A DNA stretch of 64,000 nt from Nemertoderma westbladi (Eukaryota; Animalia; Xenacoelomorpha). Positions within the stretch are counted from its first letter, which is position 1; each line of letters starts with the position of its first letter. Location: the NCBI GenBank assembly GCA_032718475.1, contig JAUCBJ010007101.1, forward strand, positions 55,381 to 119,380, read 5' to 3'. A program made the translations under genes and the position numbers. The notes under the pieces were generated by a model, which made no database searches, was not told where the DNA came from, and saw only the letters and a list, made by a program, of their open reading frames with translations. Positions 8,888 to 56,867 of the stretch are shown here, piece by piece.

Positions 8888-9330
8888 ATTAGTGTGAATT
8901 AGTGTGAAGTAGTGTGAATGAAAGTAGTGTGAAAGCATTTCCTAAAGAATGCGCTATTTGTGAGATTCTATAGCCATCTAGTTGTGATTAGTGTAAGTCA
9001 TAACTCTGTTTTATACTTAAAACGCCACGTCCCAAAGGAACTGTTAATATTTCCCCGAAAGTAAATATAGTTGTCGGAGATTATATAGTAGCATATAGTA
9101 TAGTATATATAGATTATATAGTATATCGAATGATACAAAGTTACCTACACTGCAATAAATTTCTCTGGACCCGAATCCAGTCACACAGTGGGTGATACGC
9201 TGCACACGGGCTGGTTTCAGCGGATGTAAATTCAGTACACCAGGTAATTGGTAAGGGCAAAAGTCGATTTATAATTAAAAGGACATTTAAATTGGCAGGT
9301 TAACTGCTAAAATGTCTAAAAGCGTGAACA
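8888..9330 (+). repeat. 3' part of the 5' LTR of copy B
   Basis: Ends AAAAGCGTGAACA; closely matches ~40570-40991. Confidence 0.88.
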
Positions 9331-13800: not shown

Positions 13801-16800
13801 ACTAGGAGAAAGGTAACACCAGTGTGTTATACGGATGATTATGAAAGTCAAACGTCTTATGACGAAAATAGTGGCAAAGACACCGAAAGATCTTATTACA
13901 CGAATAAAGTCAAGAAAGACGTAAGTAAACCTAAGGCTCGAACCAGTGGCTAGAGAGAACAGATAACAACTCCCCCTACGTCTCCCAAGAGAATTCCTGG
14001 TAGGAAGCCCGAAGAAAGAGCTAGCGTAGAAAATACAATGCAAGTTAAGGTAAGTAACATCAAACCTAAGTGTGTATTGTATGACGGGCCACATCACTTG
14101 AGTGGGTGTGAGGAATTCTTGAAGAAAGAACTAAAGGAGAGACGTGATGTCATGTGGGACAAAAGGATGCGTTACAATTGCCTCAGGCGAGGACATCAAA
14201 GGAAAACCTGTTACTCAGACGTGAGGTATGCTAAGTGTGGAGCGAAACATAATATCCTGCTACACACCCAGTTTGATAAGGTACCGGTAAGTTAACCCAA
14301 ACTACATGTAAAATTCAGTGATGTGAACGACACTGACCAAAGATGGAAGATGGAAGGATTCTACACAGATGAATTTTCTGATTAAAATGAATCTTGTTAT
14401 ATGATCAACACAACCATATATCGAGCCCTTACATATGAGACAGAAACGGAGGGAGAAGAACACCAACTATATATTCCGGATCGACAGCTTTCATGGAAAG
14501 TTTCGACACCATCTGTCGGCATCCGAGAGTTCCCAGTGGTGCAACTCAGAGTACATGGCCAAGGTAAGAGCTTAATAGTAAATGCACTCCTTGACTCTGG
14601 ACCTGGCCTGGCCGAAGATATCTTTGCTGGTCAACCAAGGTTCCGAACCAAACTGAACCTTTCCGGGATTATGCAGGTTTGGAAATCTACTGTATCCACG
14701 GACTTTTATGTCGGATCGTTGTCTACTCCCCAAGACAAACTAGGTGAGAACAGTGTAAGGTCAGTTAAAATGGTGGCAATAAAGAACTTTGCTACTAGCC
14801 AAGTAGAGCCTTACAACTGGGATGAAGACCATTTTACCCAGCAATACAACTTACCTAGATTCAGAACAGATTACCCCGGGGTACAGATACTGCTCGGCCA
14901 GATTGCTCACGAAGTGCTTGAAAACCTAGAGAAACGGCCTGCTCAACCGCGACCATTACAAACTTACGCGGGAAGAACGAGAGTAGGTTGGTATTTCACG
15001 GGACCTTCCCACAGGACTTTACAAGAGAGATCGTAGGGAGAGCAAGTCCATCAGGTAAGTGAGTGTGAGGAAGCCGTGAGCGAAGAGGATATCCCAGCTG
15101 AGGAAACTCTATGCTCCTCAGACAACGACGACATCCAGACTCTATATGATGAGGAAAATACCATTGAACTCCTCACGGAGAATCAAACTTGGTCAAACCA
15201 AGTTAATTTGTGTAACCTCATCTGTCAAAACAACGGACTATTGACTTACGACGACGAACTCAATGAGGTGGTAGAGCGATATAATGATAAGATACGTGAT
15301 GAACACACGGTACGATTCTTTACTCAAGAAAGAAGAGAGAGCTAAGCAAATTCAAGAAACGACTACTCGTTATCTGAAGGAGGAGGGTCGCTATGAGATT
15401 GGCTGCCTTTTAGGCGGAGAGAACCCAGCTTCATTAATAACCGACCTTTAGCGGAAAAGAGAATCGCACAGCTACATCGGCGCTTAACATCTAACGATCG
15501 AGCCAAAGAGATGTATAAGACGCAACTAAAGAAATTCATCGACAAGGGATACGCAGCGCGAGTTCCGGAAGATACACCCATAACGGAAAGAACGTATTAC
15601 TTGACACACCATTATGTTCCCAAGCCTGGTAAACCTAACGAAGTCCGGGTAGTGTTCGACGGCTCCTCCCTTAACATGGGACAATCCCTAAACTCAGAAC
15701 TGTTGCCGGGACCCAACTTAGTCCAATCTTTGTTGGGTATATTATTACGACTGCAGCAATATTCAATCGCCTTCGCCTCCGACATTGAAGGCATGTTTCT
15801 ACAAGTTAAAGCGTTAGCTAGGGATCGAGATAGCCTACGATTTCTGTGGTGGCCTGAAGGAGACCTCAACCGAAAACCGGTGGAGTACTGGATGACAATC
15901 CGGGCTTTCGGGATCATATCGAGCCCCTCAAACGCTTGTTCGGTAGTGCGCACCACTGCCGACGATAATAGAGACGCCTTCTCTAAAGTGGTTATCGACA
16001 ACATCAAATGGGATATTTATATGGATGACAATCTAAAGTCCCTCTCATCGGTGGAAGAAGCAATCGATGTTGCCAAGGGAACGGTAGAGTGCTTACAACG
16101 AGGTGGATATCGCCTAACCAAATTCACTAGTAACTCCCGTGAGTTCCTGGAATCGATCCCAGTAGAAGACCGAGGTGTTAAAGATCTTGACCTCATTAAG
16201 GATGATCTTCCCAAAACCAAGACCCTTGGACTGAAATGGGACATGGAGAGAGACATTTTATTTTTCCAACGGAAACAACGTGATAATCCCGTTCGAACTA
16301 AACGGATTTGCCTGAGTATTCTGAGCACTTATTTCGATCCATTGGGATTCATTAACCCCATAATCCTAGTTGCTCGGAGCTTGGTACAACAAATGTGGCT
16401 CGAAAACCACTCGTGGGATGATCCACTCCAGGGAGAACTGCTAAAGAAGTGGATGAAGTGGGAGGATTCTTTACCATCTATCGAGAACTTTAAGATTTCC
16501 CGCTCATATTTCGGTCATGTTCTCCCCACGTATTTCTATCAGCTCCATGTTTTTGGAGACGCCAGCGATATTAGAATAGGTATAGTAGCCTACCTGAGGG
16601 TTGATACTCCCGATGGAATTAAAGTTTCATTAGCCACCTCCAAGGCCCTAATAAACAACAAACTGCGGGTTCCCAGAGAGGAGTTAAAGGCGGCGCTATA
16701 CGCTACAGCCATCGGCCGGAATGTAACGGAATAGATTGACTATCCACTAGAGGAAACTGTCTATTGGACTGATGCGCTACTCATTCTGGAATATATAACT

Positions 16801-18898
16801 AATGAAGTCTGTCAGTTCAGCGTCTTTGTTACCAACAGAGTAGCTATTATACTCAGTTGCACTAATATAGATCAATGGAGACATTGCCCTGGGACGATTA
16901 ATCCAGCCGATATCGCTTCCAGAGGAGCAACTCCTCAAGAACTGATAGACACTCCAGATTGGTTAGGTGGCCCCGACTTCCTAGGTAAAGAAGAGGAGGA
17001 ATCAGCGGAGATCAGACAAGCCAAGGGAGCGGAGAAAGTCAAACCGAAAACCCGGACGAGTAAATCAAAGCTGTTTAAGCCAGCGATAGATCTGTCTGTG
17101 CTACACACCGCCGGTGATGCCACTGTGGATCCGAATCCATCCATGGATGTTACTCGAACCAAAAATAAATCCGTCATAGAAATAAGGGAAAGAGATTGGA
17201 AATCTGGAACACCAGACGTCTCACAAGGACTCTCTCCTCTCATCCAAAGAGCGATAGCTCATTATAGCTCCTGGAACCGGCTTTGCAAAGCCATTGTGTA
17301 TTTAAAACGATGTTTCCATCATCACTATTCCAGGACGAAGATTGCTAATGATGCCACTTCAGTAGTAGCTGAAAAGGTCCATGCTACCAAAGACCTTCCC
17401 ACTTATCGGCTACCTGATAGGTTTCTTACTGAGAAGATCAGTTACCAAGAACATGATGATGCCAACAAGCAGATACTGAGACTCCTGCAATGTTACGAGA
17501 ATTCTGAAAAGTATTTCCTGTTGTTGAGAAATCCACAGATGCGCATAAGGGATCCTTTCTCTAGCACAATGATAGATGGGCTAATACGTGTCGGAGGGAG
17601 ATTAACAAATGCTCCATTGTCCTTTGACACTAAGTTTCCCATACTCATTAGAAATCTTGAAATACAAATCAAGATGATTGTAGATGTTCACAGTAAGCTT
17701 TACCACGCTGGTAGTGAACGAGTTCTTAGCGAAATTCGAACTTGCTGTTATTTCCATAAGCCCCGTAGAGCTCTAAACCAAGTTCTTAGGAACTGTATAC
17801 CCTGTAGGAAAGCATTTAGTAGGCCTTTAACACAGCGAGAGGCAGAATTACATAGGGAAAGAGTAAGCTGTTATGAACCACCCTTTACCAATACTGGTGT
17901 GGATTTATTTGGCCCTATTGAAGTATATCGTGCTAGGACTATAGTCAAGCGATGGTGCGTAATCTTTGTTTATATGACTTGTAGAGCGATCCATCTTGAT
18001 ATGGTGAACGATCTATCTACCAACAGCTTCATAGTGAGTTTACGCCGACAAATCGCTCGTTTTGGGACTAGCAACACTATGAGATCTGACAAAGGTACTA
18101 ATTTCATTGGCGCCAATAACGAGATTAAAGCTTACGTAAACGATTTGAACCAAAGACAGGTGAACGATCAGCTAGGAGTAACAGCATCTCGCTAGACCTT
18201 CAACGCCACTGATGCCCCTTGGTGGGGAGGAAGTTGGGAGAGATACATACGTAGCGTGAAGACCGCATTTCACTTTGTAGTGCCGTGCCATGCATATCTC
18301 ACCGACGAACTTTTGCGGACGTTAATGGAGGAAATCGCTGCCTATCTCAACGAGAGACCGCTTATGCCAGTCTCATCAAGTCCCGACTCCCTAGAAGCGC
18401 TAACACCCGTGCATTTCCTACTAAAGAAACCTGTAGCCATGCTCCCGCAGTCGGAAATAACAGACGGAGACGAGAACTGCCGACAAACTTGGCAACTTAT
18501 GCAGTTATTATCCCGTCGTTTCGCTGACCATTTCGAAAAATATTATCTTCGATCTACAACTTCGATCAAAGTGGTTTGCGCAGCAAGAAAACGTCAGCGC
18601 CGGAGACATGGTCCTCATTGTGGAATCAGATCTTCCCCGTAAGAGGTGGCAGACAGGTCGTATCATCGAGACTCATATATCTGATGATGGTTTAGTGAGA
18701 TTGGTGGAACTCGTCGTCATGCGACATAACTTCAAGAAACCTGGAATTGTGTTCGAAACTCAACAACTTAATCGCCCGGTTGGTCGTTTATGTTTATTGG
18801 ACAGAGACCGAGAGTTGTCCGGTAACTATGGAAAACAAGAGACTCTTCCCACGATCACCTCCCTAATCCAGCAAACATCTAGGGACTCCCCAACGTAA
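10859..18898 (+). pseudogene. pol: BEL/Pao gag-pol polyprotein pseudogene (Gag, Zn knuckles, protease, RT, RNase H, integrase)
   Basis: LLDSG protease (damaged); RT VRVVFDGS, SDIEGMFLQV, LRFLW, YMDD; RNase H LHVFGDAS, NPADIASRG; IN H..H..CIPC, TGVDLFGP, SDKGTNF, APWWGGSWER; order PR-RT-RH-IN with Pao-type motifs; many stops and frameshifts. Confidence 0.95.
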
Positions 18899-20960: not shown

Positions 20961-22194
20961 TGTTCGCGCTTTTGAAGACCTTTAGCAGTTTAACCTGCCA
21001 AAATTTATATGTCTTTTAGTTAATTAACACACCTTTAGCATACGACAATATTTTATGCTAATAAACAAAACATTAGCCGAAGCCAGCCCATGCGCGATCA
21101 TTCACCCGATGGATCTACACCCGGGAGGCTGAATTCGGATGCTTAGATTTTATTATTGCAGTGTAAGGTTGCAGTGTAAACCTATTGTATTATTCGATAG
21201 ATCACTAATAATTAATTTCTGACAGATATTATTAACTTTCGGGAAATATTAACAGTTCCTTTGGGACGTGGCGCTCTATCTATTTAAACAGAGCTAGGAC
21301 TTATACTAAACGCAACGATAAGGCTTATGATTAAAGTATAAGTCGCATTCTTTAGGAAATGCTTTGTTACCAGTCACATCACACTCACAATCATGCACAC
21401 TATTCTGCCGACCGTCAGTATATTTGATCACACATAAAGAGAGCAGCAATTGACTCACGTAGGGTCTGCTAAATAACATTGGATTCAATACACACCACAT
21501 TAATATAAATCGCAATTGTTATGGATAGCCGGTCTCTCTAACCTGTAGTGTATCAAGAAAATTGGGAATTTGGGTGATTTATCCGTATTATCCAAAGAGC
21601 AATATTTCCATCAACAAATAGGTACAATTAATAACTGACGGTAAATAGCAGTACAAACAATATGATTAGTGCAATTAAATTAAGTGAGGTAACACTGCCG
21701 CCGTTAACAGTTATACTTTCTATAATCTAAGCAGTTTACTAGAGTTCTTCCCAAAAAGCCGGTGTTTCTGGCTTAGACAGCAATAACAACAAAGTATCAA
21801 GTAAAAACAGTAAGACTGAACACTCTCCTTATGATCGACTAAAAGCTACACGTCGACAGGAAAAATCGCTCTGATTGGCTCAAGCCAAACAAAGAACCGT
21901 ACATCCAATGGCTGTTTCCATGTCAGCAACCAGCTGTTAGATGTCGTAATATGAATCATCACGGCTAAGCTGTGAAAGGTAATTAATGCATTACAGGTTT
22001 TTTGCCTTACCATGTCCGCCAAAACACGTATATAGCAGAATTACTTTTATGTCCGTTAAAACACCTGTAAAGGTACCTTGCGGGCGAGGGGAATATATAT
22101 ACAGTCAGAGAACCTTTTTTAGAGTATTCCAGCGCCTGGGGGAAACTGGATTGCGAAGCAAAGGGGCCAGTTATATCCCACAGAAGCTTTTACA
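20961..22194 (-). repeat. 3' LTR of copy C
   Basis: TGTAAAAGC...GCGCGAACA; preceded in sense by purine-rich TGGGAGCGG (22195-22203). Confidence 0.96.
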
Positions 22195-22272
22195 CCGCTC
22201 CCAGAAAATGGGATTTAAGTCTATAAAATATACAAAATCACAGTTTCTCAAATACGAAAATACTCTAAACAG

Positions 22273-29349: not shown

Positions 29350-31597
29350 GTTTGATTGTACAGTTGAATGCCTACTGCTATATTACAGTTAAAGCAAGTC
29401 TAGTAATTCAGTATCACTGTTAGCCTAGTAATTAATTACCGATACTGCTACTCAGTGTAGCGTGATATATATATAATATATTAGAATACCGGTATGCTTA
29501 TAATATATATATAAGTATTATTACAGACTAGATTTGTCACAGAGTACCGGTATATAATTTTAGCACAAATATATATAAATATATAATAAGCCTATCGTGA
29601 ATACCGGTATACAGCTTACACTGATAGTATATATAAGTATAATTATGGACTAGAATTAATTACAGAGTACCGGTATGATTTCAGCTCAAATTTATAGAAA
29701 TAAATATAATAAGCCTATGGTAAATACTGGTATGTCAATTATTTTAGAATAATTGAATTTCTGAATATTTTAGGGTTACTTGGTTACTTTAACTTACTTT
29801 ATTACCGTTATTTAAGCAGTAGTCCAACTGATATTGAGACCTAGTTGTTGTATGGCAGGCCTACTATTTATAAATCGTTTGAGTTGATTTATAATATTTA
29901 TATACCCGTTTAAAATGGGTTTTTGTCAATATTTGAAATAAATGTTATTATTTCTGGGGGAGTCACTACACAGAAGCTGAACGCCTCTCAGTGAAGTGCT
30001 ATTTATTTGACACTAAAACTGATAATTCTAATTTACCTAAGTTACTTAATACTACAAATTACTTACGATACGGGTGAGATTAATTCTCTAATTAAACACA
30101 ACAAAATATTACGTACGAAATTTTTAGGGTAATTTTACAGGAAGTCTACAAACCAGTCCAACAAAGGGTTAGATTTCTGGTTATTACAAAGGACAGGGTA
30201 CTACGGTATTTAAATAATAAGTAGTAGTAAATATATTGTACTGTCCAGATAGGAAAATACCACCGCCTGACGACCTATAACCGTATCGCTATAGGTACTA
30301 CGTTATGTATCACGGATTGTTCCTACCCAGAAGCTAATAGAGCTAACGAATGTGCCTATCAACCACTTTACAACACAAATATACTGCCTACACTAATTAC
30401 TTCGGAAAGCACTGTACTCTAAACCCTAAATTAGGTACAAGTACCGGTATAACAAATAATCAGTAGTTAAATATACTTGAACAGTTAAAAGAACCACGGC
30501 ATCTGCTGGAGTGACCGAAGCACCAAGTCGTCAGTCTTTACCTACGCCAAGCAGCCCTGATGTAGTACCGGAGTTAGTTTAACTATAACGGTATGTATAA
30601 CAAGCACAATTACTGTAGGAATAAACTTGGGGACATGAATGTTGCGAATAATCGCATAAACTCTGAATAATAAATATTACGCTACCCGTACAGAATACTC
30701 AAACAAAATACAAACCAAACGCTGGCAAACTACTATCAAGCCTAAACAAACTACAGTATGTGCAGATTCTGAAACTGTTAGTTAGTATGCGTGCTAACAC
30801 GGTAGTACGACTTACTCTTTAAGAGGGGATTGTCCTTACAGCATATGGCTGCCCCAACTTACTAACGGCACTTGATCAGACCAACTCTACACACGCAGCA
30901 ATCCCTTCAGACCTAAAAATAGCTAGACAACAATCCAGCCTACAAATATTTGAGTAATAACTATTACGGTACCTGAACAGACCACACAAACAAACACAGG
31001 CTAAAACACTGACAGACTACGATCAAGCCTAAATAAACTACAGTATATGCAGACTCTGAAACTGTTAGTTAGTATGCGTTCTAACACGGTAGTACGACTT
31101 ATTCTTTAAGAGGGGATTGACCTTCAGCATATGGCTGCCCCAACTTACTAACGGCACTTTATCAGACAAACTCTACACACGCCGTAATCTCTCCAAACTC
31201 AACAACAGTCAGACAGCAGCCCAGCCTACAATTATCTGAACAATCTGAGCAGGGTCACACGCCTTCTGCTCAATATTAGCCTACTAGTAAATAAAACTGA
31301 CAGAAATAGACCTAAGTAAAATCCCAATAAAAACCAGGCGTCCCCGATTTAATATCGAGACCTACCGGTATACAATAATCAAAATCGAATAATACTAAAT
31401 GTACTTGTACAGCAGTACCGGTACCGGTGATGACAGTTAGGCCTACTGACCTACAGAAGCACCGGTTCAGTTTTACCAGTCACTACGGTATTTTGCAACC
31501 TTATTGCCTACTGCAATAAGATTATAAACTGTTACTGTTCGACAGAACAGTATTAAACTGTATTTAATGCTTACACTGCAATACAAGTAACTGTTAC

Positions 31598-32831
31598 TGT
31601 TCGCGCTTTTGAAGACCTTTAGCAGTTTAACCTGCCAAAATTTATATGTCTTTTAGTTAATTAACACACCTTTAGCATACGACAATATTTTATGCTAATA
31701 AACAAAACATTAGCCGAAGCCAGCCCATGCGCGATCATTCACCCGATGGATCTACACCCGGGAGGCTGAATTCGGATGCTTAGATTTTATTATTGCAGTG
31801 TAAGGTTGCAGTGTAAACCTATTGTATTATTCGATAGATCACTAATAATTAATTTCTGACAGATATTATTAACTTTCGGGAAATATTAACAGTTCCTTTG
31901 GGACGTGGCGCTCTATCTATTTAAACAGAGCTAGGACTTATACTAAACGCAACGATAAGGCTTATGATTAAAGTATAAGTCGCATTCTTTAGGAAATGCT
32001 TTGTTACCAGTCACATCACACTCACAATCATGCACACTATTCTGCCGACCGTCAGTATATTTGATCACACATAAAGAGAGCAGCAATTGACTCACGTAGG
32101 GTCTGCTAAATAACATTGGATTCAATACACACCACATTAATATAAATCGCAATTGTTATGGATAGCCGGTCTCTCTAACCTGTAGTGTATCAAGAAAATT
32201 GGGAATTTGGGTGATTTATCCGTATTATCCAAAGAGCAATATTTCCATCAACAAATAGGTACAATTAATAACTGACGGTAAATAGCAGTACAAACAATAT
32301 GATTAGTGCAATTAAATTAAGTGAGGTAACACTGCCGCCGTTAACAGTTATACTTTCTATAATCTAAGCAGTTTACTAGAGTTCTTCCCAAAAAGCCGGT
32401 GTTTCTGGCTTAGACAGCAATAACAACAAAGTATCAAGTAAAAACAGTAAGACTGAACACTCTCCTTATGATCGACTAAAAGCTACACGTCGACAGGAAA
32501 AATCGCTCTGATTGGCTCAAGCCAAACAAAGAACCGTACATCCAATGGCTGTTTCCATGTCAGCATCCAGCTGTTAGATGTCGTAATATGAATCATCACG
32601 GCTAAGCTGTGAAAGGTAATTAATGCATTACAGGTTTTTTGCCTTACCATGTCCGCCAAAACACGTATATAGCAGAATTACTTTTATGTCCGTTAAAACA
32701 CCTGTAAAGGTACCTTGCGGGCGAGGGGAATATATATACAGTCAGAGAACCTTTTTTAGAGTATTCCAGCGCCTGGGGGAAACTGGATTGCGAAGCAAAG
32801 GGGCCAGTTATATCCCACAGAAGCTTTTACA
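31598..32831 (-). repeat. 5' LTR of copy C
   Basis: 1234 bp, matches 20961-22194. Confidence 0.96.
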
Positions 32832-36290: not shown

Positions 36291-37765
36291 CATGAGGTCA
36301 ACCTACACGCTAGACCTTTACCAAACTCATTTTATGGGATCAAAGACCATCCCTATTATGTCAATTTAACTCAATATTATATGGTGAAACCAGAAGATCC
36401 TACATACAGTTTAAAGTTTCTACCATTGATAAATCCCGCGGTGACTTGTTCATAAACTCGCAACTTGAACTACAAGAAGTTCATAGACGACCCTATGAAT
36501 ATAGAGCCCGAGAACGCGAGTTGGAAAGAACCATCAAACCTAGGAAATTTCTCACTACTCACGGTCCGCCTACCGCTCTCGTGCAAACGACCCGTCAGGG
36601 ACCAGTAAGAGCTGCTGTCCTGAAACGCGCTCTAAAGGTTGTTCGACCTCGTTCCACTGAGGTTGATATCGATCAACCAGGTACCTCAACCGGCGGATAC
36701 ACCGACCGCAACCTGAAACCTTCCGATGCAATTGTATTGCACCCCTCACCCAGGAGATATAGCCCTCCTAGTAAAGTGGCTCGCCTCAAGGAGAAAAGGA
36801 CTCTTGCTAGCCTTAAAAAACTTTGTAAACGCCGTTCACGTAAGAAGGACTAATAGTTTAGAGTATTTTTATATTTTAGAAACTGTGATTTTTTATATTT
36901 TATAGACTTAAATCCCATTTTCTGGGAGTGGTGTAAAAGCTTTTGCGGACATAACAAGTTATTTTTCCCGCAATGCGCAGTGTAGGTGCTTTTGCGGACA
37001 TAACAAGTCATTTTTGCCGCAATGCGCAGAATACTCTAAAATAGCCCTAAATGTATTCAACTCCGTGACGGGAAGGAATCAGAGCCCCGATGACGAAATC
37101 TATCAGCTGATTCTCTGTGGACGTGAAACTTTTCTTTGTTCTGCTCAGCCAATCAGAGCGATTTCACTTTATGTCTTACAGAGGCCTATGGAAACCCGCG
37201 CAATGCATTACGGTCTTTGTTTACCTTTCTGAGCCTCAGAACCGGCTTGGAATCTTCTGTACTTCTGTTTTGAAAGTTTCAGACTTTGGCCTAAACATTA
37301 GATGGCTTCGATTATAAGAACGTAAATTTATTATCTCGATGCATTACTCTCGTAACATTACGGTCTTTCATTACGTAACACATACTGACTGCTCACCGCA
37401 TTATTTTACTTCTGTTTACGGTCTGTTGTTAATTGTTGTTATATTGATGTATATTGCTGATATATTTGGAGAATACCGATAAATAATCATAAAACCCCCA
37501 ATCTTCTTGATTACTGAAGGTAAGAGGAACAGCTTACCGGTAGCAATTGCGACTTAAATAATAGTGGTTTTTGTGTGAATTAAATGCTATTTCATAATCC
37601 CTACTTGTGTCAGTTGCAATCCTCCTTATATATGATCAAATTCAGTGATGGTCGGCAGATTAGTGCGCAGTAGTGTGAAGTAGTGTGAAGTCGTGTGAAG
37701 TAGTGTGAAAGATAATAAAGCATCTCCTAAAGAATGCGCTATTTACGAAACTCTGTGGCCATCTA

Positions 37766-39780
37766 CAGTCGGGGTCTCAAAGTGCATCTGTTCTTTGAGA
37801 TTTTCTCAAAGAACTAAAAGTGTCTCAAATTTCTAAAAGTGGTCCAAGAAAATGACAAAGTGTCCTCAAAGATTTCAAAGTAGTACTGTCAGTCATTTCA
37901 TACAGTTCTGCCTGAAACTGGCTATGGTATGGGGTATATTGACTTTGACTATAGGGTAAAATATAAGTAATAAAACCTCTATGAAACAATAAAGATGCCT
38001 CCAAAAAATACTGCAGTAATAAATATTTGTTACTGAAAGTAAGAATTAAACTGTTTTTAGAAGTACTAAACTTACTGCAGTAATAAAAAATTGTCTTTTT
38101 CTGCAGTAACAAATAATTTGTTACTGCAGTATAAATGTTTATTCAATTATTTATTCATTTATTAATATTGATTATTGCAGTAATAAATATTTGTTACTGC
38201 CGCAGTAATAAATATTTGTTACTGCAGTAATAAATATTTATTACTGCAGTAATAAATATTTGTTACTGCAGTAATTATTATATGTTACTGCAGTAACTAA
38301 TATTTAATACAGCAGTATTTTTTGTAGGTATTTTTATTGTTTCATAGAGGATTTTATTAATTTATATTTGGACTCTTTAGAGACGCCATAATTGCGGGCT
38401 ATCGGAATGTGTTGGTGTTTGTGTCATAGACAGTTTGTCTGTTGCCCTATCTATATTAATGTATAGTGCTAAAACTGTACTGTTTAAATTTGTTTAGCCC
38501 ACGTGAACGCCGAATACCTTTACCAATGCATTTCAATGGTCAACCAGCCATACTTTGCCGCACTGTAAATTGTGTTATACAAAGTAAAGAATAACGATAG
38601 AGGCAGGAATAAAGATAAATGATTCAAGCGCACTAATTGGCTGTTCCCATAGATGTTTTAGGCATTGTTGGTGCGCAATGCATATGGTCAGAGCGACCGC
38701 CAAGTCTGCCAAAATCTATTATGTAATCAAATGGTACACCAAGCAAAGCAAAGCCTCCGACAGTTCTTTCCGGCTCTGCACCTGTTTGTTGGAAGGTCAC
38801 CGTCCGTAGGTCGCCACTCGCTAGCTGTGATTGATAGCTTAAACTGGGTGCCGCTTTGTCAGAAGGCGGTACACATCAATTGAATATCAGGCAAACATTT
38901 AAAATATGCTCAAATATAAACGCCAGCGGCAGGGGATATTTTAATATCTCTATTAAGTTAAAACAACACAAGAGTGTAGCCGTTCTATCGTACTTGAAAG
39001 TTGAAAGACTTTCTTCGTTTTTAAGAAGAAATTCTCGCGCTCTCGTCACCATAGTTATCATATTAATTAATCAGTTAAGGTAGTACGGTTTGACCTGAGG
39101 TGACTAATGAAATGAATAACAAATGTTATTACAAGCTTTCTCCCAACGGGGCTTCTTTAGGTCATTATAATGAAACTGCATATACACAGAGATACTACAG
39201 TGCAGTTTCTCTTATATTAATTGTTAATATTATATTGTATTATGTTATTAAAATAATCAATCTTGTCAAGCATTAATCTTGTTTCACTAATTATGTTTCA
39301 TGTATTATTTGAATGAATGTTTTTTAGAAAGACTTTAGGGTGCCGTAAATTCAATTTGTACTTGCGACCTAAAACCCATCCCGTAATGACCTCAGGAACC
39401 TCAATTTGATAAATTAATGGGAATATAGCTTCTATGCAACAACTGGCCAGCACACAAGTATCACTTTGTTGCCCGCATAATATTGTTCCCGAGAATGCCT
39501 ATGCCTCTCAGTTAACTTACCACGAGCTGTCAATCAGGAATACCTCGGAGTTTATTTTCTCAAAGAATTAAAAGTGCCGCAAACTACCTCAAAGTGACAT
39601 TTCTCAAAGATTTCAAAGAATTAAAAGTGCCTAAAAGCAGGAAATCACTTTGAGATTCCCAACTAAAAGTGTCTACAAGAATTCAAAGCGGCCGTTGGGA
39701 GTAATGTAATGACTTTTAGACACTTTTAGAAAAACTTTGAGAAAATCTCAAAGAACAGATGCACTTTGAGACCCCGACTG
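37766..39780. mobile_element. Non-autonomous Tc1/mariner-type DNA transposon (2015 bp)
   Basis: Perfect 46-bp TIRs CAGTCGGGGTCTCAAAGTGCATCTGTTCTTTGAGATTTTCTCAAAG; TA duplication; empty site GCCATCTAGTTGTG seen in the other LTRs; no transposase. Confidence 0.9.
37950..38380. repeat. Foldback-like segment with ~22-bp tandem repeats
   Basis: ~60-bp imperfect inverted ends enclosing CTGCAGTAATAAATATTTGTTA repeats. Confidence 0.7.
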
Positions 39781-40110
39781 TAGTTGTGATTAGTATAAGT
39801 CATAACTCTGTTTTTATACTTAAAGCGCCACGTCCTAAAGGAACTGTTAATATTTCCCCGAAAGTAAATATATTGTCAGAGATTATATAGTAACGATCAA
39901 TCGAATAATACAGTAGGTCTACATTGCAATAACTTTCAAGGCATCCGAATCCAGTCTCCCTTAACTGTGGGTGAATGATCGCGCACAGACTGGCTTCGGC
40001 TGATGTAACTTCAGTACACTAAATAAACGATATAGGCTAAAGTCGATTTATAAACAAGAGGACAACTAAAATTGGCAGGTTAAACTGCTAAAGGTCTAAA
40101 AGCGCGAACA

Positions 40111-40991
40111 ATGCCAATAGAGCCCTATAGAAAAAGGGCGTAATGCGGCAGTTTTTCTGAGAATCCTATTCCATTCTGGATTCAGTCCTAAGTTCAGACG
40201 TTTCAGACTTTGCCCAAGAACATCTGATGGCTAGAGTTATAAGAACGCAAATCTAATAACTTATCATACCATATTTCATACCATCACATCAACACATACT
40301 GACTCTGTTCACCGCACTGTCTTAATGCTGTTTTATATTGTTGTTAATTGCTGTTTATATTAATGGATGTTATATTTGGAGAACACCGATAAATAATCGT
40401 AAACCCCTCAACTTTCTTAATTACTGAGGTAAGCAGAAGGGTGTACCGGTAGCAACTGCGACTCAAATTATAGTGGTTTTTGTGTGAATTAAATGCTATT
40501 TCATAATCCCTACGTGTGTCCGTTGCAATCCTCCTTATATATGATCAAAATCAGTAACGGTTAGCAAATTAGTTTGAATTAGTGTAAATTAGTGTGAAGT
40601 AGAGTGAATGTTAATAAAGCATCTCCTAAAGAATGCGCTATTTACGAAACTCAGTAGCCATCTAGTTGTGATTAGTGTAAGTCATAACTCTGTTTTATAC
40701 TTAAAGCGCCACATCCCAAAGGAACTGTTAATATTTCCCCGAAAGTAAATATAGTTGTCGGAGATTATATAGTAGCGATCAATCGAATGATACAAAGTAG
40801 CCTACACTTCAATAACTTTCTCTGGACCCGAATCCAGTCTCCCACACAGTGGGTCATATGCCGCGCACGGACTGGCTTCGGCGGATGTAAATTCAGTACA
40901 CCAGGTAATTGGTAAGGGCAAAAGTCGATTTATAATTAAAAGGACATTTAAATTGGCAGGTTAACTGCTAAAAGGTCTAAAAGCGCGAACA
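40111..40991 (+). repeat. 5'-truncated LTR matching B's 5' LTR
   Basis: Shares TTCAGTACACCAGGTAATTGGTAAGGGCAAAAGTCGATTTATAATTAAAAGGACATTTAAATTGGCAGG with 9231-9299; ends GCGCGAACA. Confidence 0.88.
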
Positions 40992-44345: not shown

Positions 44346-45578
44346 TGTAAAAGCTTCTGTGGGATATAACTGGCCCTTTTGCTTCGCAATCCAGTTTCCC
44401 CCCAGGCGCTGGAATACTCTAAAAGGCTCTCTAACTATATATATGTCCCCCTCGCCCGCAAGGTACCGTTATAGGTGTTTTAACGGACATAAAAGTCATT
44501 CTTATATATACGTGCTTTGGAGGACATGGTAAGGCAAAAAACCCGCAATGCACCAAATACCCTTACACAGCTTAGCCTTGATGATTCAGATTGCGACATC
44601 TAACAGCTGGTTGCTGACATGGAAACGGCCATTGGACACATGGTTCTTTGTTTAGCTTAAGCCAATCAGAGCGATTTTTTCTGTCGATGTGGAGATATTC
44701 GGCCGATGATACTAGGAGTGTTCAGTCTTACTGTTTTTGTGATACTGTTGTGTTCCTTCTATCTAGGCCAGGAACACCGGCTCTAGAGTCAATTCGTTTC
44801 AGACTTTAGAAGAAACATTAGTAGGCTTAAGATTATAGAGCGTATAACTGTTATCGGTCCAGTCAAACAGTGTTACCATCTTAACCTACCGTCTTAATGC
44901 TATTTACTGTTGTGTTTTGGTTGAATATTATTATTTGGAGAACATTTATAAAGAACCCAAATTTCCCAATTTTCTTGATACACTACAGGTTAGAGAGACG
45001 GGTTATATATAGCGATTGCGACTTATATTGTTGTGGTTTGTAGTGAATTTAATGCTATTTGATAAGCACTACATGAGTCCGTTGCTGCTCTCTTTATATA
45101 TGATAAAATTCATTGACGGTCGGCAAATTAGTGAGCAGTATTGTGTGTTACCGGTAGTGTGCCTGATTGTGACTGATAACTAAGCATTTGCTAAAGAATG
45201 CGTCTCATACGTGAATCATAAGCCTTACCGACTTACCGTTGTGATTAGTATAAGTCATATCTCTGTTTACCTAGATAGAGCGCCACGTCCTAAAGGAACT
45301 GTTAATATTTCCCGAAAGTGAATAATATTAGTCAGAAACTATTTATTAACGATCAATCGAATAATACAGTAAGCTTACACTGCAATAATAATCTAAGCCC
45401 TCAGAATCCAGTCTCCCGGGTATATCCAGCGGGTGAATGGACGCGCACTAGGCTGGCTTCTGCTAATGTTGTGTTTATTGGTATTAAATATTTGTCAACT
45501 TCTAAAGTCTATTTATAAACCAAAAGACATATAAATTTTGGCAGGTTAAACTGCTAAAGGTCTTCAAAAGCGCGTACA
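44346..45578 (+). repeat. 5' LTR of copy F
   Basis: TGTAAAAGC...GCGCGTACA; CCAAT motif near 44662. Confidence 0.96.
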
Positions 45579-45589
45579 ATAACAGTTAT
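45579..45589 (+). promoter_or_regulatory. Putative self-primer binding site (no tRNA PBS)
   Basis: ATAACAGTTAT is the exact complement of ATAACTGTTAT at 44844-44854; co-varying equivalents in A, B and C. Confidence 0.7.
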
Positions 45590-45644
45590 TGACTTTATTG
45601 CAGTAAGCAATAAAGTTGAAAGTACCGGTCGACCGGTAAACCTG

Positions 45645-45770
45645 AACCGGTACTTCTGTAGGTCAGTAGGCCCAACTGCCAGAACCGGTACTGCTGTAGG
45701 TCCGTAGGTCCAACTGCCAGAACCGGTACTTCTGTAGGTCTGTAGGCCCAACTGTCCTAACCGGTACTTC
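45645..45770 (+). repeat. 38-bp tandem repeat in the leader (about 3 units)
   Basis: AACCGGTACTTCTGTAGGTCAGTAGGCCCAACTGCCAG; about 2 units in A (4620-4710). Confidence 0.85.
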
Positions 45771-47813
45771 CAGTATAAGTACATTAGTATTATTTCGATT
45801 GTGATCTATTGTATATTGTGGGCTGCCAGGGGAATAGGGATTGATCACCCCTCATTCTTTTGTATAGTTTACTTATTTCTGTCAGTTTTATTTCCTAGTA
45901 AGTTAATATTGAGCTGAAGACGTGTAAGTCTGCTCAGATTGTTCAGATAATTGTAGGCCGGACTGTTGTCGGATTGTTGTTGGGTTTGGAGAGATTACGG
46001 CGTGTGTAGAGTTTGTCCGATAGAGTGCCAGTTAGTAAGTTGGGGCAGCCATAGCTGTAAGGTCAATCCCCTCTTAAAGAATAAGTCGTACTACCGTGTT
46101 AGAACGCATACTAACTAACCATTTTGGAATCTGCACATACTGTAGTTTATTTAGGCTTGACAGTACTCTGCCAGCGTTTTGGCCTGTGTTTGTTTGTGTG
46201 GTCTGTTCAGGTACCGTAATAGTTATTACTCAGATATTTTGTAGGCTGGATTGTTGTCAAGCTATTATTAGGTCTGAAGAGATTGCTGCGTGTGTAGAGT
46301 TTGTCTGATAAAGTGCCAGTTAGTAAGTTGGGGCAGCCAGTGCTGTAAGGTCAATCCCCTCTTAAAGAATAAGTCGTACTACCGTGTTAGAACGCATACT
46401 AACTAACCATTTTGGAATCTGCACATACTGTAGTTTATTTAGGCTTGGTGGTAGTCTGCCAGCGTTTGGTTTGTATTTGTTTGAGTATTCTGTACGGGTA
46501 GCGTAATATTTATTATTCAGAGTTTATGCGATTATTCGCAACATTCATGTCCCCAAGTTTATACCTACAGTAATTGTGCTTGTTACACATACCGTTATAG
46601 TTAAATTAACCCCGGTACTACACGGGCTGCTTGGCGTAGGAAAAGACTGGTGACTTTGTGCTTCGGTCACTCCAGCAGATGCCGTGGTTCTTTTAACTGT
46701 TCAAGTATATTTAACTACTGATTATTTGTTGTACCAGTACTTGTACCTAATGTAGGGTTTAGTGTACAGTGCTTTCCGAGGTAATTAGTGTGTAGGCAGT
46801 ATATTTGTGTTGTAAAGTGGTTAATAGGCACGCTGGATCTGGTAGTCCGCGGTAATTAACTTCTAGGTAGGAACACTCCGTGATACATAACGTAGTACCT
46901 ATAGCGATACGGTTATAGGTCGTCAGGCAGTGGTATTTTCCTATCTGGACAGTGCAATATATTTACTACTACTTATTATTTTCAAATACCGTAGTACCCT
47001 GTCCGTTGTAATAACCAGAATTCTAACCCTTTGTTAGGCTGGTTTGTAGACTTCCTGTAAAATTACCCTAAAATTTCGTACGTAATATTTTTGTTGTGTT
47101 TAATTAGAGATTTAATCTCACCCGTATCGTAAGTAATTTGTAGTATTAAGTAACTTAGGTAAATTAGAATTATCTGTTTTAGTGTCCCATAGGTAGCACT
47201 TCACTGAGAGCGCACAGCTTCCGTGTAGTGACTCCCCCAGAAATAATAACATTTATTTCAAATATTGACAAAACCCATTTTAAACGGGTATATATCTATT
47301 ATAAATCAACTCAAACGATTTATAAATAGTAGGCCTGCCATACAACAACTAGGTCTCAATATCAGTTGGACTACTGCTTAAATAACGGTAATAAAGTAAG
47401 TTAAAGTGACCAAGTAACCCTAAAAATATTCAGAAATTCAATTATTCTAAAATATTTGACATACCGGTATTTACCATAGGCTTATTATATTTATTTCTAT
47501 AAATTTGAGCTGAAATCATACCGGTACTCTGTAATTAATTCTAGTCCATAATTATACTTATATATACTATCAGTGTAAGCTGTATACCGGTATTCACTAT
47601 AGGCCTATTATATATTTATATATATTTGTGCTAAAATTATATACCGGTACTCTGTGACAAACCTAGTTTACAATACTTATATATACTATAAGTGTATACC
47701 GGTATTCTAATATACTGTAATAAATTAACGGTACTAGGCCAACGGTCATACTGAATTACTAGACTTGCTTTAACTGTAACTATAGCAGTAAGCATTCAAC
47801 TGTATAGCTAAAC

Positions 47814-50800
47814 ATGTCTGACACCCAGCAAAACCTATCAGACAGTCTAATCGATACAACCATCTGTGACACAGATAGGAGTGTGGAGCGATTAAGAAAG
47901 GAGTTCAGCTCACCTCCTACTGAAAGAAAGGTCATCCCTCCAGTAGTAGTATCAGACCCTAAGCTAATCCAACACCGTAGGTCTATCATCGGCACTCGAG
48001 CCCAAGTCAAACGGAACCAGGAAGCAGCTGTCCAACAGCAGCAACATCCTAGTCAAGAAACTTGTTCCCAGCGATCCGATAGCTCCAGTAGTTCGGATGC
48101 TGTAGAGCTGACCCCCGAACGCGGAGTGCAGATGACGGCTACAGCCTACTCGGATCCCCTTCTCACCCTTCCTGCCGCAGTGCTAACTACTATATTGATT
48201 GCGGTGGAGGAACATCAAGCCGATTGGGCGAGAAGTAAGCGAGCGACCCAAGATAGTTATGCGGGATACGCCAGGGAAGAATTGATGTCTATTGTCGAGT
48301 CACAATGGAACTTTCCCGGACCCGGACTCCCGTTAGATTTGTCCGAAGCTACTTGGGAAGATATACACAGGATGGGAGTGACTAAAGATACAATGGATCC
48401 AGCTGTTTGGAAGAGGTCGGCAGCAGGATATGTGCAGGGATTCTTCGGCTCCTTGGAGCGATTGGAAGAACAACTGTTTCGACAACCCCAAGGACCTCAA
48501 GAGCAGGAAGAGCTGCTATATCAAGTACGCGAAAGAACCCTACGCATTAGACTAATCCTATCAGCCTTTGAGGAAACTTCCAAAAGAAGACAGGACACGT
48601 CGCTGCAGGTTGCTGTCAAAACTTGGTTCCAGCGGGTAGGTCTCAAAGTAAAGTACAAGAAACGGACCAGTGGAAATCCCAGCTGTCTGAGAGACTAACC
48701 TATGAAGAACCAACCGATGCCACCCTTTCTCAAGTGGAAGGCGAAGAGACCGCAGAGAGACCACGAACGAGAGACGCCATCGACATTTATCTGTCCGACT
48801 ATCAGCGTTTCCTAGGAGACGAAGAGTTGAGGAGACGGCTGTCTGGACTTTCCCCTAATAGTGAAGGAACCCAGCGTGTGTTAGACTCAATCGATGCTGA
48901 AATGTTAGCTGCTAACCAAGCTGAGTTTGATGAAAAACTCCGCCTCACTAGAGTCCAAGAAGAACTAGTAAAGAAAAAAAGGATAGAGGACCGAAAGGCA
49001 GCTGCAGTAACAGCGGCAATGGCCGAAGTGGAAGCAGAAAGAAAGGCAGCGGCGGCAGAAGTAGAAGCAGAAAGAAAGGCAGCGGCGGCAGAAGCAGAAG
49101 CAGAAAGAAAGGCAGCGGCGGCAGAAGCCGAAGCAGAAAGAAAAGCGACTGTGGCAGCAGCAAAGGCAGTGGCAGAAGCAGAACAGAGGGCGTCTGAAGA
49201 GACCACACAACTGGAGTTGGAAAATCTTCAAGAGACGCAAGATTGCATAAATAAACAGTTAACTGCTAGTCAAATGCAGATGAGGAGTCGATCTACTCCC
49301 AAACGCCAGGGATACACCTCATCAGAGGAAAGCGAAACCACCGATCCTGAAGGTGGAGGAAATAGATCTCGTCTAAGCAGGCGTAGAAAAACATCTCACC
49401 GTCACAAATTGCCTGATTTGCCCCCAGCAGTTAGAAGACAACTAGCTAGCCCAGACTTAGGTAGTATAGAACCTACAGACCAAATTATTCAGGTCAAAAG
49501 ACTCCCTACAATAGTTGATGAGCCTGAAATAATTAGGCCTGTCGTTCCCAAAGTCACTTCTGTGCTAGAGACCCCTGTACTTCCAGAGCTTAACTCTAAA
49601 TTCCCTTTACACAGTACTACACTGCCTGTACCCGGTAGAACAGTCCATGAGAATATCCCTGTCCTGGAAGCTGAGAGAGAAATCAAAGATTTGTCTCCCG
49701 TCGTCCCGCGTCAGCCCGCTACAATGTTGGCGACTCCCGCTTCGGCGGTCGAGTGGGTAGAGGAGGGACGGCGGGGGATGAATCTCCTGCTCGGACAGAT
49801 GCAGGAGACTGTCCACCAGCTTAAGGGAACAGTAAGGGAAGGTAGGGCAGAATTGCAAGAAGGGCAGCAAAGTATCGCACTGGAACGCGACAAATTAGTC
49901 AATATACAAAAAGGCATACCAATACCCCCTGTAACATTGTGTCAACCTGTTAGGTCTGAAGTATTACATGCGCAAGGTGTGGAGCCTACACGCATCTATA
50001 CTGCTAGTGAAGTAGAAACTCCTATAGCAAACCCTATTAAGGGTGATTATAGACCTGTTATTAATGATATTCCCTATAGACCTGACAATGATCTGAGAAA
50101 TTTATATACCGATAATTCGATATTAAATAACACGATGGCCCAAGAAAGCTTTACGCGTCAGATGGCTAGAACAGAAGCCCGCCAAGCGGTCAAAGTTTGA
50201 GAGATCGTCAAATTCAATGGAGATGAGATGAAATGGTTACCTTTCAACGAATATTACAAAGACAGCATACAGAACTCTGTGCTATCTAACGGAGAGAAAC
50301 TTAGGTTCCTCATCAAGTGCTTGGAAGGACCTCCCAAGTTAATGGCGTTAAAGTTTATTGGACATCCAGAAGGATTAAGACAAGTTTGGGATACATTAAA
50401 CATCAGGTATGGTAACAAGGATAACATAGCTAAGTATTTGTATGCAAAATTAGTAGCCCCCCGAAACTTCCTTAGTAGCGGGATTATAGAGTTTTCCGAT
50501 GAGATTCAGGAGATCTGTAGACAATTGGACTGGTTAGGTAAGTCTCATGAATATCAGAGTTCCATGGTTATTGGAGCAGTAGTCTCTACTTTACCAAAGG
50601 GTGGAGTATGTACATGCTGGAACAAGAAAGTGTTGTATATGAATGAGCAACAACGACGAAGCCCTACCATGGCTGATCTCATGTCCTTCTTAGATAGTGA
50701 AGTAAAATTACAACTCATAAAGCAGTCCAGAGAGAAAACATCGGAAAATAAGGTAAGTGAGAAACCCGTTTCTAGGAGAAGGATAATACCAGTGTGTTAT

Positions 50801-52477
50801 ACTGACGACGGCGAAAGCCAAGCTTCTCAGGAAGAGGACAGCGGGAAAGACACAGCAAAATCTTACTATGACAACAAGACCTATAAAGACGTAAGTAAAT
50901 ACAAGTCTCGAACCAGTGACAGGAGAGAACAGGTAACAACAACTCCTCCTACGTCTCCTAAGAGAATTCACGGAAGAAACCCCGAAGAAAGAACGAGAGT
51001 GCATAACGTTACCCAAGGTAAGGTGAGTAACATCAGACCAAAATGTGCGCTGTGCGACGGGCCCCACCGTTTGAGTGCGTGTGCTGAATTTCTAAAGAAA
51101 TCCCTTGTAGACAGACGTACAGTCCTGTGGAATAAGCGGTTATGCTATAATTGCCTCAGATCAGGACACCAACGGCGAACCTGTTACTCCGACGTAAAGT
51201 GTGCAAAGTGTGGCGCGAAACATCACATCTTGTTACACAGTGAGTTCGAACGAGACAACCCGAGTCAGGTAAGTGAGCCCGAACTACATGTCCAATTCAG
51301 TGATGTAAATGACACTGATCAAGAGTCTGAGATGGAAGGATTCTATACTGACGAATTCTCCGACGCCAACGAATCCTGTTACCTAATAAATACCGCAGTG
51401 TATCGAGCACTTACGTATGAAAGGGACACCGACAATGAGTTCCCCCCAACTACCTTTGACAGACAACCATCTTGGAAACCTCCAACTTCCAACGTAGGAA
51501 TCAGAGAATTTCCGGTAGTGCAGGTAAGAGTTCACGGTCCTAACAAAAGTTACATAGTGAACGCCCTCCTTGACTCCGGCAGCACAGGAACATTCATCGA
51601 TCAAGAACTAGCCGAAGATATCTTTGCTGGACAACCCAAGTTCCGGACTAAATTGAATATGTCAGGAATTATGCAGGTTTGGAAATCTACCCTAACGGCA
51701 GACTACTATGTAGGTGTGTTGTCCACCCCCCAGGATAAATTAGGAGCACAAGGGATAAGGTCGGTAAAAATGGTGGCTATAAAGAACTTCGCTACTACCC
51801 AAGCAGACCTTTATAATTGGGACGAGGATGAGAGCATCCAACATCTTAAGATACCTCGATTCCAGACAGATTATCCTGGAGTGCAAATACTCATCGGCCA
51901 AAACGCGCATGAGGCGCTCGAGACATTGGAGAAACGGCCTGCTCAACCGCAGCCACTACAAACCTATGCGGTAAGAACTAGAGTAGGTTGGTACTTCACT
52001 GGCCCTTCCCGTAGAACTCTCAAAGAGAGATTACCTCAACAACAGGTATACCAAGTAAAGGAATGGGAAGTGGAGAGCAGTGAGGTGGACGACCCAACTG
52101 AGGGAACACCATACTCCTCAGATAATGACGATATTAACTCCAATGTAGATCAATGGAGACATTGCCTTGGGACGATTAATCCAGCCGACATTGCTTCCAG
52201 AGGAGCAACTCCTCAAGAACTGATAGATACTCCAGGCTGGTTAGGTGGATCCGACTTCTTAAGTAAAAAAGAAGAAGAATGGCCTCCTCATCTTACAACG
52301 GCGGAGATTAGACAGGCCAAGGGAGCGGAGAAAGTAACACAACAACTCAATCGCCCAGCTAGTCGTTTATGTTTACTGGAAAGAGACCGAAAACTGTCCG
52401 GAAACTATGGAAGGCAAGAGACTCTTCCTACGACCACTTCCCTAATCCGACAAATATCTAGGGACTCCATAACGTAA
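47814..52477 (+). pseudogene. gag: Gag-protease ORF of copy F (frameshift near 48640, GGA>TGA at 50198-50200)
   Basis: Three consecutive ORFs colinear with copy C; same RT/RH and IN deletions. Confidence 0.93.
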
Positions 52478-52495
52478 TAACATATGGAGTGGGCG

Positions 52496-55556: not shown

Positions 55557-55634
55557 CTGTTTAGAGTATTTACGTATATTAGAAACTGTGATTTTGTATA
55601 TTTTATAGACTCAAATCCCATTTTCTGGGAGCGG

Positions 55635-56867
55635 TGTAAAAGCTTCTGTGGGATATAACTGGCCCTTTTGCTTCGCAATCCAGTTTCCCCCCAGGCGCTG
55701 GAATACTCTAAAAGGCTCTCTAACTATATATATGTTCCCCTCGCCCGCAAGGTACCGTTATAGGTGTTTTAACGGACATAAAAGTCATTCTTCTATATAC
55801 GTGCTTTGGAGGACATGGTAAGGCAAAAAACCCGCAATGCACCAAATACCCTTACACAGCTTAGCCTTGATGATTCAGATTGCGACATCTAACAGCTGGT
55901 TGCTGACATGGAAACGGCCATTGGACACATGGTTCTTTGTTTAGCTTAAGCCAATCAGAGCGATTTTTTCTGTCGATGTGGAGATATTCGGCCGATGATA
56001 CTAGGAGTGTTCAGTCTTACTGTTTTTGTGATACTGTTGTGTTCCTTCTATCTAGGCCAGGAACACCGGCTCTAGAGTCAATTCGTTTCAGACTTTAGAA
56101 GAAACATTAGTAGGCTTAAGATTATAGAGCGTATAACTGTTATCGGTCCAGTCAAACAGTGTTACCATCTTAACCTACCGTCTTAATGCTATTTACTGTT
56201 GTGTTTTGGTTGAATATTATTATTTGGAGAACATTTATAAAGAACCCAAATTTCCCAATTTTCTTGATACACTACAGGTTAGAGAGACGGGTTATATATA
56301 GCGATTGCGACTTATATTGTTGTGGTTTGTAGTGAATTTAATGCTATTTGATAAGCACTACATGAGTCCGTTGCTGCTCTCTTTATATATGATAAAATTC
56401 ATTGACGGTCGGCAAATTAGTGAGCAGTATTGTGTGTTACCGGTAGTGTGCCTGATTGTGACTGATAACTAAGCATTTCCTAAAGAATGCGCCTCATACG
56501 TGAATCATAAGCCTTACCGACTTACCGTTGTGATTAGTATAAGTCATATCTCTGTTTACCTAGATAGAGCGCCACGTCCTAAAGGAACTGTTAATATTTC
56601 CCGAAAGTGAATAATATTAGTCAGAAATTAATTATTAACGATCAATCGAATAATACAGTAAGCTTACACTGCAATAATAATCTAAGCCCTCAGAATCCAG
56701 TCTCCCGGGTATATCCAGCGGGTGAATGGACGCGCACTAGGCTGGCTTCTGCTAATGTTGTGTTTATTGGTATTAAATATTTGTCAACTTCTAAAGTCTG
56801 TTTATAAACCAAAAGACATATAAATTTTGGCAGGTTAAACTGCTAAAGGTCTTCAAAAGCGCGTACA
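55635..56867 (+). repeat. 3' LTR of copy F
   Basis: Preceded by TGGGAGCGG; matches 44346-45578. Confidence 0.96.

Follow-up and report, generated by a model that had tools for sequence, protein, structure and literature searches.

It was found that, in a family of BEL/Pao retrotransposons of Nemertoderma westbladi, the 11 bases abutting the 5′ LTR are fully or largely complementary to a site inside the LTR, and that these bases probably bind a primer cut from the element's own RNA and not a tRNA. A self-derived primer is suggested because the site lies at the start of the minus strand, lacks a tRNA complement and varies together with the LTR of the same element in many lineages. Judged from sequence, this points to a tRNA-independent priming system in BEL/Pao that is probably wider than the family described here and built unlike that of Tf1. 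Self-priming itself is already known; what appears to be new is its signature in BEL/Pao, a group not known for it.

The window, meaning the whole stretch of 64,000 nt that was analysed, is animal DNA packed with one LTR family. An OSTM1 coding segment of 229 aa is located at 6157-6846, between elements A and B. The elements and LTRs of the family are as follows.

44346-56867 (+): element F, about 12.5 kb
44346..45578 (+): 5′ LTR of F, 1233 nt, TG...CA, differing from the 3′ LTR at 7 of 1233 bases
55635..56867 (+): 3′ LTR of F, carrying a second copy of the 11-mer at 56133-56143
47808..52477 (+): gag-protease frames of F, broken, with DUF1759, placed by self-BLAST against B
4772..6052 (−): 5′ LTR of A, with the LTR site at 5563-5573; element A runs out of the window
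4761..4771 (−): 11-mer of A at the primer-binding site (PBS) position, with a double-sided change at pair 3 relative to F
20961-32831 (−): element C, inserted within B, with a 5-nt target duplication and LTRs that differ at 1 base
31598..32831 (−): 5′ LTR of C, with the LTR site at 32341-32351
20961..22194 (−): 3′ LTR of C
31519..31597 (−): leader of C, with PBS-position copy 1 at 31587-97 and a second copy of LTR end plus PBS at 31519-35, 62 nt on
8888..9341 (+): truncated 5′ LTR of B (8888-9330) and its PBS-position 11-mer (9331-41)
12064..18195 (+): gag-PR-RT-RNase H-integrase frames of B, decayed, with DUF1759, Peptidase_A17 and Integrase_H2C2 (translation and tblastn)
36932..40110 (+): LTR S1, following the purine tract of B, split by a 2-kb insertion at 37766-39780, with the site at 37324-34
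40111..40991 (+): LTR S2, 5′-truncated, with the site at 40249-59, 94 % identical to the 5′ LTR fragment of B

Element B alone in the window has an RT; its frames for RT, RNase H and integrase are broken. F, A and C are deletion derivatives from which RT is missing; self-BLAST against B showed that RT, most of RNase H and integrase are deleted from F, which is non-autonomous. B ends in a compound LTR region, S1 followed by S2. Its 5′ LTR fragment is less similar to the adjacent S1 (81 %) than to S2, and S2 is plausibly the remnant of B's own 3′ LTR.

Despite the missing tRNA PBS, the proteins bear out the BEL/Pao identity proposed in an earlier sequence-only reading of this DNA. The assignment follows from DUF1759 (detected in F, C, A and B), Peptidase_A17 (E 8.9e-31 in B), three Cys-His motifs in Gag and the Pol order PR-RT-RNase H-integrase between the LTRs, present in the B frames at 14386-18195. 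RNase H-type acidic motifs are visible in the B translation, and no chromodomain match was obtained in the 22 frames scanned in the window. All 30 RT homologues were of BEL/Pao type, the best at 38 % identity. In a quick RT tree of 74 rows with no named reference elements and no outgroup (7 of 81 rows, shorter than 250 aa, were dropped), B formed a long branch outside the relatives' loci, so that its placement is unsure. The family shares with the Belpaoviridae (Semotivirus: Tas, BEL, Pao and Sinbad) the DUF1759 Gag, the three Cys-His motifs, Peptidase_A17, the Pol order and TG...CA LTRs of about 1.2 kb. The ICTV profile gives Belpaoviridae an 18-nt PBS for tRNA-Arg or tRNA-Gly with host tRNA priming and an element size of 4.2–10 kb, and calls their replication poorly understood (PMC8742986). 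In contrast, the typical tRNA PBS is absent in the window family, and F at about 12.5 kb exceeds the stated size range.

Several further features of these elements and their surroundings were recorded. The 2.2-kb 5′ leader of F contains 38-nt and 288-nt tandem repeats (45644-45770 and 45943-46521) and many ACCGGT palindromes. A second sense ORF lies downstream of pol in B (33087-34766 and 36314-36853), F (54093-55556) and C (22273-23577), at the position of an env-like or accessory gene. It is about 80 % conserved among the three, even in RT-less copies, and gave no Pfam match and only weak atlas matches (at most 0.83) with no family. A splice-donor-like motif occupies the same place in all five LTRs, including 44987-44993 (F), 37519 (S1) and 40428 (S2), and may be used to make a subgenomic RNA for gag or for the second ORF. 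The 2-kb insertion in S1 (37766-39780) has long terminal inverted repeats and is likely a non-autonomous DNA transposon. Two non-LTR RT insertions (34796-36331 and 56868-58228; RVT_1, DUF6451) are 97 % identical, one lying within the second ORF of B and the other immediately after the 3′ LTR of F. An open frame of 518 aa at 42220-43776 encodes a Mutator-like transposase (PF20700).

The two strands of the proposed duplex in F are the following.

44844..44854 (+): candidate primer strand of F, LTR position 499-509, followed by an unpaired C; complementary at 11/11 to 45579-89
45579..45589 (+): PBS-position 11-mer of F, directly abutting the LTR, with no TGG

The sequence-only reading had claimed that a TGG-type tRNA PBS is missing, and the first TGG after the LTR indeed lies at +241 (F), +48 (A), +120 (C) and +145 (B); the first 47 nt of all four leaders are free of it, and the typical 18-nt tRNA PBS is absent. 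The window and 80 loci of relatives yielded no tRNA genes. The pairing in F (44844-54 with 45579-89) was recovered at 11/11 exactly where it had been placed, and that in A (5573-63 with 4771-61) at 11/11 with the compensatory change, A-T to G-C at pair 3. In C (32351-41 with 31597-87), where a 9-bp core had been reported, 9/11 bases pair and both end pairs are mismatched. For B, 10/11 pairing of 40249-59 with 9331-41 was confirmed, but the LTR site is not in B's own 5′ LTR, which is truncated; it lies in S2, 31 kb away, and would be a fair but indirect proxy. The S1 site (37324-34) pairs with the B leader by 9 Watson–Crick pairs and 1 G-U. The published criterion for self-priming is at least 10 bp of complementarity starting 0–5 bp after the LTR (excerpt of PMC6317226); F and A, at 11/11, fall within it as stated there, B having 10/11 and C 9/11 for a post-LTR complement of at least 10 nt.

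An exact 11-mer complement arose anywhere in a same-length Markov-1 LTR in 5/3000 cases for F and 1/3000 for A. Compared with other internal positions, the longest-complement statistic was 0.008 for F, 0.006 for A, 0.053 for C, 0.35 for B/S2 and 0.19 for B/S1, and a match of at least 9/11 is expected by chance for C in 22 % of cases. C and B are thus not significant alone, and count as evidence because their sites stand in the same alignment columns as those of F and A; the sites share these columns in all five LTRs. Five of the 11 pairs change on both sides, namely pairs 2, 4, 7 and 11 in B/S2 and pair 3 in A. The co-variation proposed for four copies stands as regards double-sided changes, but the compared part of the LTR is about 95 % the same in F and A, which leaves about three independent subfamilies. 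In a cross matrix of duplex energies, each of the five LTR sites paired best with its own leader. The helix is followed on the LTR strand by C, and a pyrimidine-A step is present at the site, in five of five LTRs; the loop between the paired strands measures 735–800 nt.

Some observations count against self-priming. C is the youngest copy (1 LTR difference), yet both end pairs are mismatched in both of its LTRs, and the palindrome of its leader has been kept through changes at both ends. The caveat raised earlier, that the F motif is quasi-palindromic while the A and B pairs are not explained in this way, was sound for those three but had missed C (leader self-palindromy F 10/11, C 10/11, A 8/11 and B 2/11). 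The leader of C also carries a 62-nt duplication of LTR end and PBS-position sequence (31536-31597), the two copies of which match the LTR with different bulges; unduplicated forms are present in contigs of sequencing run X1. In favour of self-priming, the letter at 32341 is changed in one X1 contig of a C-type LTR (depth 5.2) to one able to pair with the first leader base of C, and this sibling LTR thus pairs at one position more with the C leader than C's own LTR does.

To place the layout among relatives, 80 loci were fetched by RT alignment from metagenomes, mostly 30–45 % identical. The RT alignment search returned no relative in viral contigs and one in genome contigs, the LTR-end pattern search returned 0 matches in metagenome contigs, and atlas searches gave no host assignment. 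Scanning for LTR pairs in the 58 of 80 loci of at least 3 kb gave 11 with matches. Scanning of 26 loci for inverted repeats gave 5 at a likely LTR end, 5 elsewhere and 16 with none, many of these 16 being without one of the two sites.

An exact match of 10–12 bp, 0–6 nt after the LTR and each at 0.006 or below against internal positions, was found in seven of the 11 relatives tested (L019, L021, L011, L053, L004, L074 and L005); five of the seven had been chosen after the repeat scan of 26 loci, and most positives belong to one clade. Where a second LTR fixes the LTR end (five loci), L019, L021 and L005 match exactly, L061 matches at 10/11 with a 1-nt gap and L046 fails. The unspliced match fails in the remaining four of the 11 (L061, L023, L046 and L041), and splicing gives no rescue in L041 and L046. 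The leader 10–12-mers vary widely among families, each being matched to its own LTR in the cross matrix. Common to these loci are a helix of 10–14 bp, an unpaired C on the LTR strand immediately 3′ of the helix (9/10 relatives) and usually a short bulge with a second helix on the 5′ side; this second helix is significant in L019 and L074 and mixed in L004. The suggestion that self-priming arose in the window family is not supported as it stands, since the same layout occurs in BEL/Pao elements only 35–40 % identical in RT, and the co-variation first noticed in the window extends to these unrelated loci. As far as the sequences tell, the self-pairing layout is a wider trait of the BEL/Pao group.

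In three relatives, removal of a predicted LTR intron creates or lengthens the leader complement.

4558-4939: predicted LTR intron of L001
4018-4138: predicted LTR intron of L023
6781-6854: predicted LTR intron of L005

An 11-bp match exists only across a GT-AG junction in L001 and L023, and in L005 predicted splicing lengthens the match from 10 to 14; a random-site control for junction-spanning matches gave 0/150 in each of the three. Appearance or lengthening of the match across a splice junction indicates that the pairing acts at the RNA level. L001 (JAWKNJ010000003.1) is a BEL/Pao contig inside a Flavobacteriales MAG, probably eukaryotic contamination of that bin. A splice-made primer was also considered for the window family and rejected: no spanning match of at least 9 nt was found in the 276–604 possible GT-AG junctions per LTR. 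No GT-AG joint is among the 6 and 2 joints listed for X1 (contigs of unknown type).

Sequence around the primer strand was then considered for features of transcription and folding.

44662..44727 (+): CCAAT motif (F, A, C and S1) and initiator-like TCAGTC (F, A and C only), from motif scan and alignment
44818..44847 (+): flank on the upstream side of the primer strand, with predicted pairing to 45201-45234 (helix X) or to the leader following the PBS (helix 2)
45201..45234 (+): partner of helix X, internal to the LTR, about 370 nt downstream of the upstream flank
45589..45619 (+): leader hairpin just past the PBS-position 11-mer, competing with helix 2

The region 44662..44727 is a candidate promoter, 120–180 nt upstream of the 11-mer. 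Pairing goes beyond 11 nt, weaker helices reaching into the LTR sequence upstream of the 11-mer. For helix 2, the second leader copy of C forms 8 bp (0.012 against LTR windows and 0.006 against shuffles) and B/S2 is borderline (0.010 and 0.092, respectively); it is not significant in F, A, C copy 1 and B/S1 of the window or in the relatives L021, L011 and L053. The leader hairpin has a predicted energy of −13.3 kcal/mol in F and A and is weaker in C and B. Helix X was first spotted in F and then checked at the same place in the other LTRs. Its letters co-vary between F/A, C and S1/S2, and in each of the five LTRs it stands among the best 1.1 % of LTR windows or higher. When position is disregarded, the statistic reaches significance for F (1/40), A (2/40) and S2 (0/40) but not for C (15/40) or S1 (10/40). 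Helix X was not seen in any of six relatives tested (13–59 of 60 shuffles as good).

These features bear on how closely the system follows Tf1. In a strict Tf1 version, a sub-case of self-priming that we regard as on the unlikely side, the RNA would start at 44844 and the primer would consist of the 11-mer alone; helix X would be confined to the 3′ copy (U3-R) and keep the second 11-mer from reaching the PBS. This would suit the perfect block of exactly 11 nt in F and A, the pyrimidine-A step in all five LTRs and the nested-only fold, in which helix probability is 0.83–0.98 when the RNA starts 0–4 nt before 44844 and, in F and A, falls from 0.9–1.0 to 0 when 22 nt or more of upstream sequence is included. 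However, helix X crosses the primer helix, forming a pseudoknot beyond what the folding program can model, and the nested-only fold is thereby weakened. It could mean that the RNA starts at 44844 and helix X locks the 3′ copy, or it could be an artefact of the ban on pseudoknots. The 8 further pairs of the second C leader copy with upstream sequence, and the significant upstream helices of L019 and L074, also argue against the strict version, as does the first exon of only 4–7 nt that the spliced relatives would need if the primer were the RNA 5′ end. In F, A and B, the 22 nt just downstream of the 11-mer show weak pairing with U5 or the leader (−4.8 to −6.2 kcal/mol in F and A), and there is no canonical TATA 30 nt upstream of 44844, as had been observed before. 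The earlier equation of the 11-mer with the first 11 nt of the RNA, exactly as in Tf1, is not supported, in view of the upstream side helices and the short first exons. An RNA start at 44844, as far as modelling goes, is somewhat unlikely, and the predicted start is doubtful since the additional helices draw on the LTR upstream of the 11-mer.

Self-priming by an internal LTR segment, the reading preferred here, would probably proceed by a mechanism different from the Tf1 'pretzel'. Pol II would start in the LTR, most likely 10–130 nt upstream of 44844; a start somewhat upstream is favoured by the downstream position of the Tf1 side duplexes and by the 4–7 nt first exons otherwise needed. The segment 44844-54 would then pair with 45579-89 across about 735 nt, aided by a second short helix past a bulge. 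Cleavage immediately 3′ of the paired block, ahead of the conserved unpaired C, would free a 3′-OH, the enzyme being, by analogy with Tf1, the RNase H of RT. RT, supplied in trans for F, A and C, would extend the primer into U5. Plus-strand synthesis would finally copy the primer into the PBS, keeping the two sites matched, which would yield concerted changes at both. In some relatives, the host would first have to splice an intron out of the LTR for the primer strand to form.

The main rival to self-priming is that the duplex is a structural or switching element (in packaging, dimerisation or translation control), comparable to retroviral U5-leader pairings, and that the true primer is a host tRNA half or small RNA. 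The palindromic leaders of F and C, the end mismatches of C and the competition among helix X, helix 2 and the leader hairpin are consistent with such a switch, and in several relatives the helix adjoins the gag ATG. Leader positions 2-7 could presumably pair with the tRNA-Asn anticodon loop. Half-tRNA priming is known in copia lineages (excerpt of PMC6317226). We nevertheless consider this explanation unlikely: the leader 10–12-mers differ among families and follow their own LTR, which one host RNA cannot do, and the A and B leaders are not palindromes. In addition, the gag start of F lies about 2.2 kb past the LTR, the primer helix following the LTR end and not the gag start, and a structural role gives no reason for the loss of the tRNA site.

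Alternatively, the primer could act in trans, being either a short transcript of its own from a solo or sibling LTR, which some families would splice, or the second packaged RNA. Such a self-encoded tRNA substitute would also be a form of self-priming. The C leader fits the sibling LTR in X1 better than its own, and the introns in the primer strand of relatives must persist in the inherited copy yet be removed in the primer, both as a trans primer would have it. However, the leaders of F and A differ and each is a perfect match to the LTR of its own element, as predicted for cis action, and the C mismatch is equally explained by one change in the parental 3′ LTR copied to both new LTRs; a trans primer is quite improbable. 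Chance complementarity in AT-rich, quasi-palindromic sequence is largely refuted and highly improbable: 9/11 matches are common (22–40 %) and would cover C and B, which lack significance alone, but not the 11/11 pairing in F and A, the shared columns in all LTRs, the double-sided changes at five pairs and the recurrence of this geometry in distant loci, in some of them across splice junctions.

For self-priming in its fullest form, much of the radiation of marine-invertebrate BEL/Pao elements would have swapped the tRNA for a self-made primer by a non-Tf1 route, with an internal LTR segment, helix-bulge-helix docking and a cut before the conserved C, assembled by splicing in some lineages and gated by a co-varying pseudoknot (helix X) in the window family. 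We offer this combined scenario tentatively, at somewhat under even odds.

Among known systems, the closest likeness is to Tf1, Tf2 and Tj1 of the Tf1/sushi group, which likewise lack a tRNA site and in which some 11 nt beside the 5′ LTR are the complement of a site in the LTR. The superfamilies differ, Tf1/sushi being Ty3/gypsy chromoviruses and the window elements carrying BEL/Pao domains. The Tf1 primer is reportedly retained, as the title of one paper has it. RNase H cleavage in Tf1 falls between bases 11 and 12 (excerpt of PMC7175516), and two side duplexes use LTR sequence downstream of the primer (excerpt of PMC10085805). As far as these excerpts go, the Tf1 primer is the RNA 5′ end, whereas the side helices of the window family use upstream sequence and its loop spans 735–800 nt; the BEL/Pao relatives also differ from Tf1 in their spacers of 0–6 nt and spliced primer strands. 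Self-priming has been predicted from the same kind of sequence evidence for plant Tcn1 (gypsy) and TAR/Houba/Osr-1 (copia), which belong to other superfamilies and hosts and for which the excerpted text describes no spliced primer strand (PMC6317226). Hairpin priming has been proposed to precede tRNA priming (excerpt of PMC3601003).

The statement of the sequence-only reading that it knew of no prior description agrees with the literature covered, in whose titles and abstract openings no report of BEL/Pao self-priming was found, Repbase Reports and older subscription papers lying outside this coverage; primer or tRNA terms gave no match in PMC3118150, PMC554778 and PMC12440569. Given that coverage, prior notice of BEL/Pao self-priming is possible. 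Within the BEL class, the Caenorhabditis elegans element Cer7 has been proposed to encode its own tRNA-like primer; this would be a tRNA mimic with a CCA end, unlike an LTR site pairing with a non-TGG leader.

Self-priming has been described for gypsy elements (Tf1/sushi and Tcn1) and proposed for one copia lineage (TAR). Its presence in a third LTR superfamily, if true, bears on whether self-priming is ancestral or has arisen repeatedly. It would also explain why such elements go unnoticed in annotation based on the PBS, and suggests that tRNA fragments would not control them. The coordinates given here for the candidate cleavage site are exact and testable. For the spliced cases, if true, primer supply would be tied to host splicing, and reverse transcription would depend on it.
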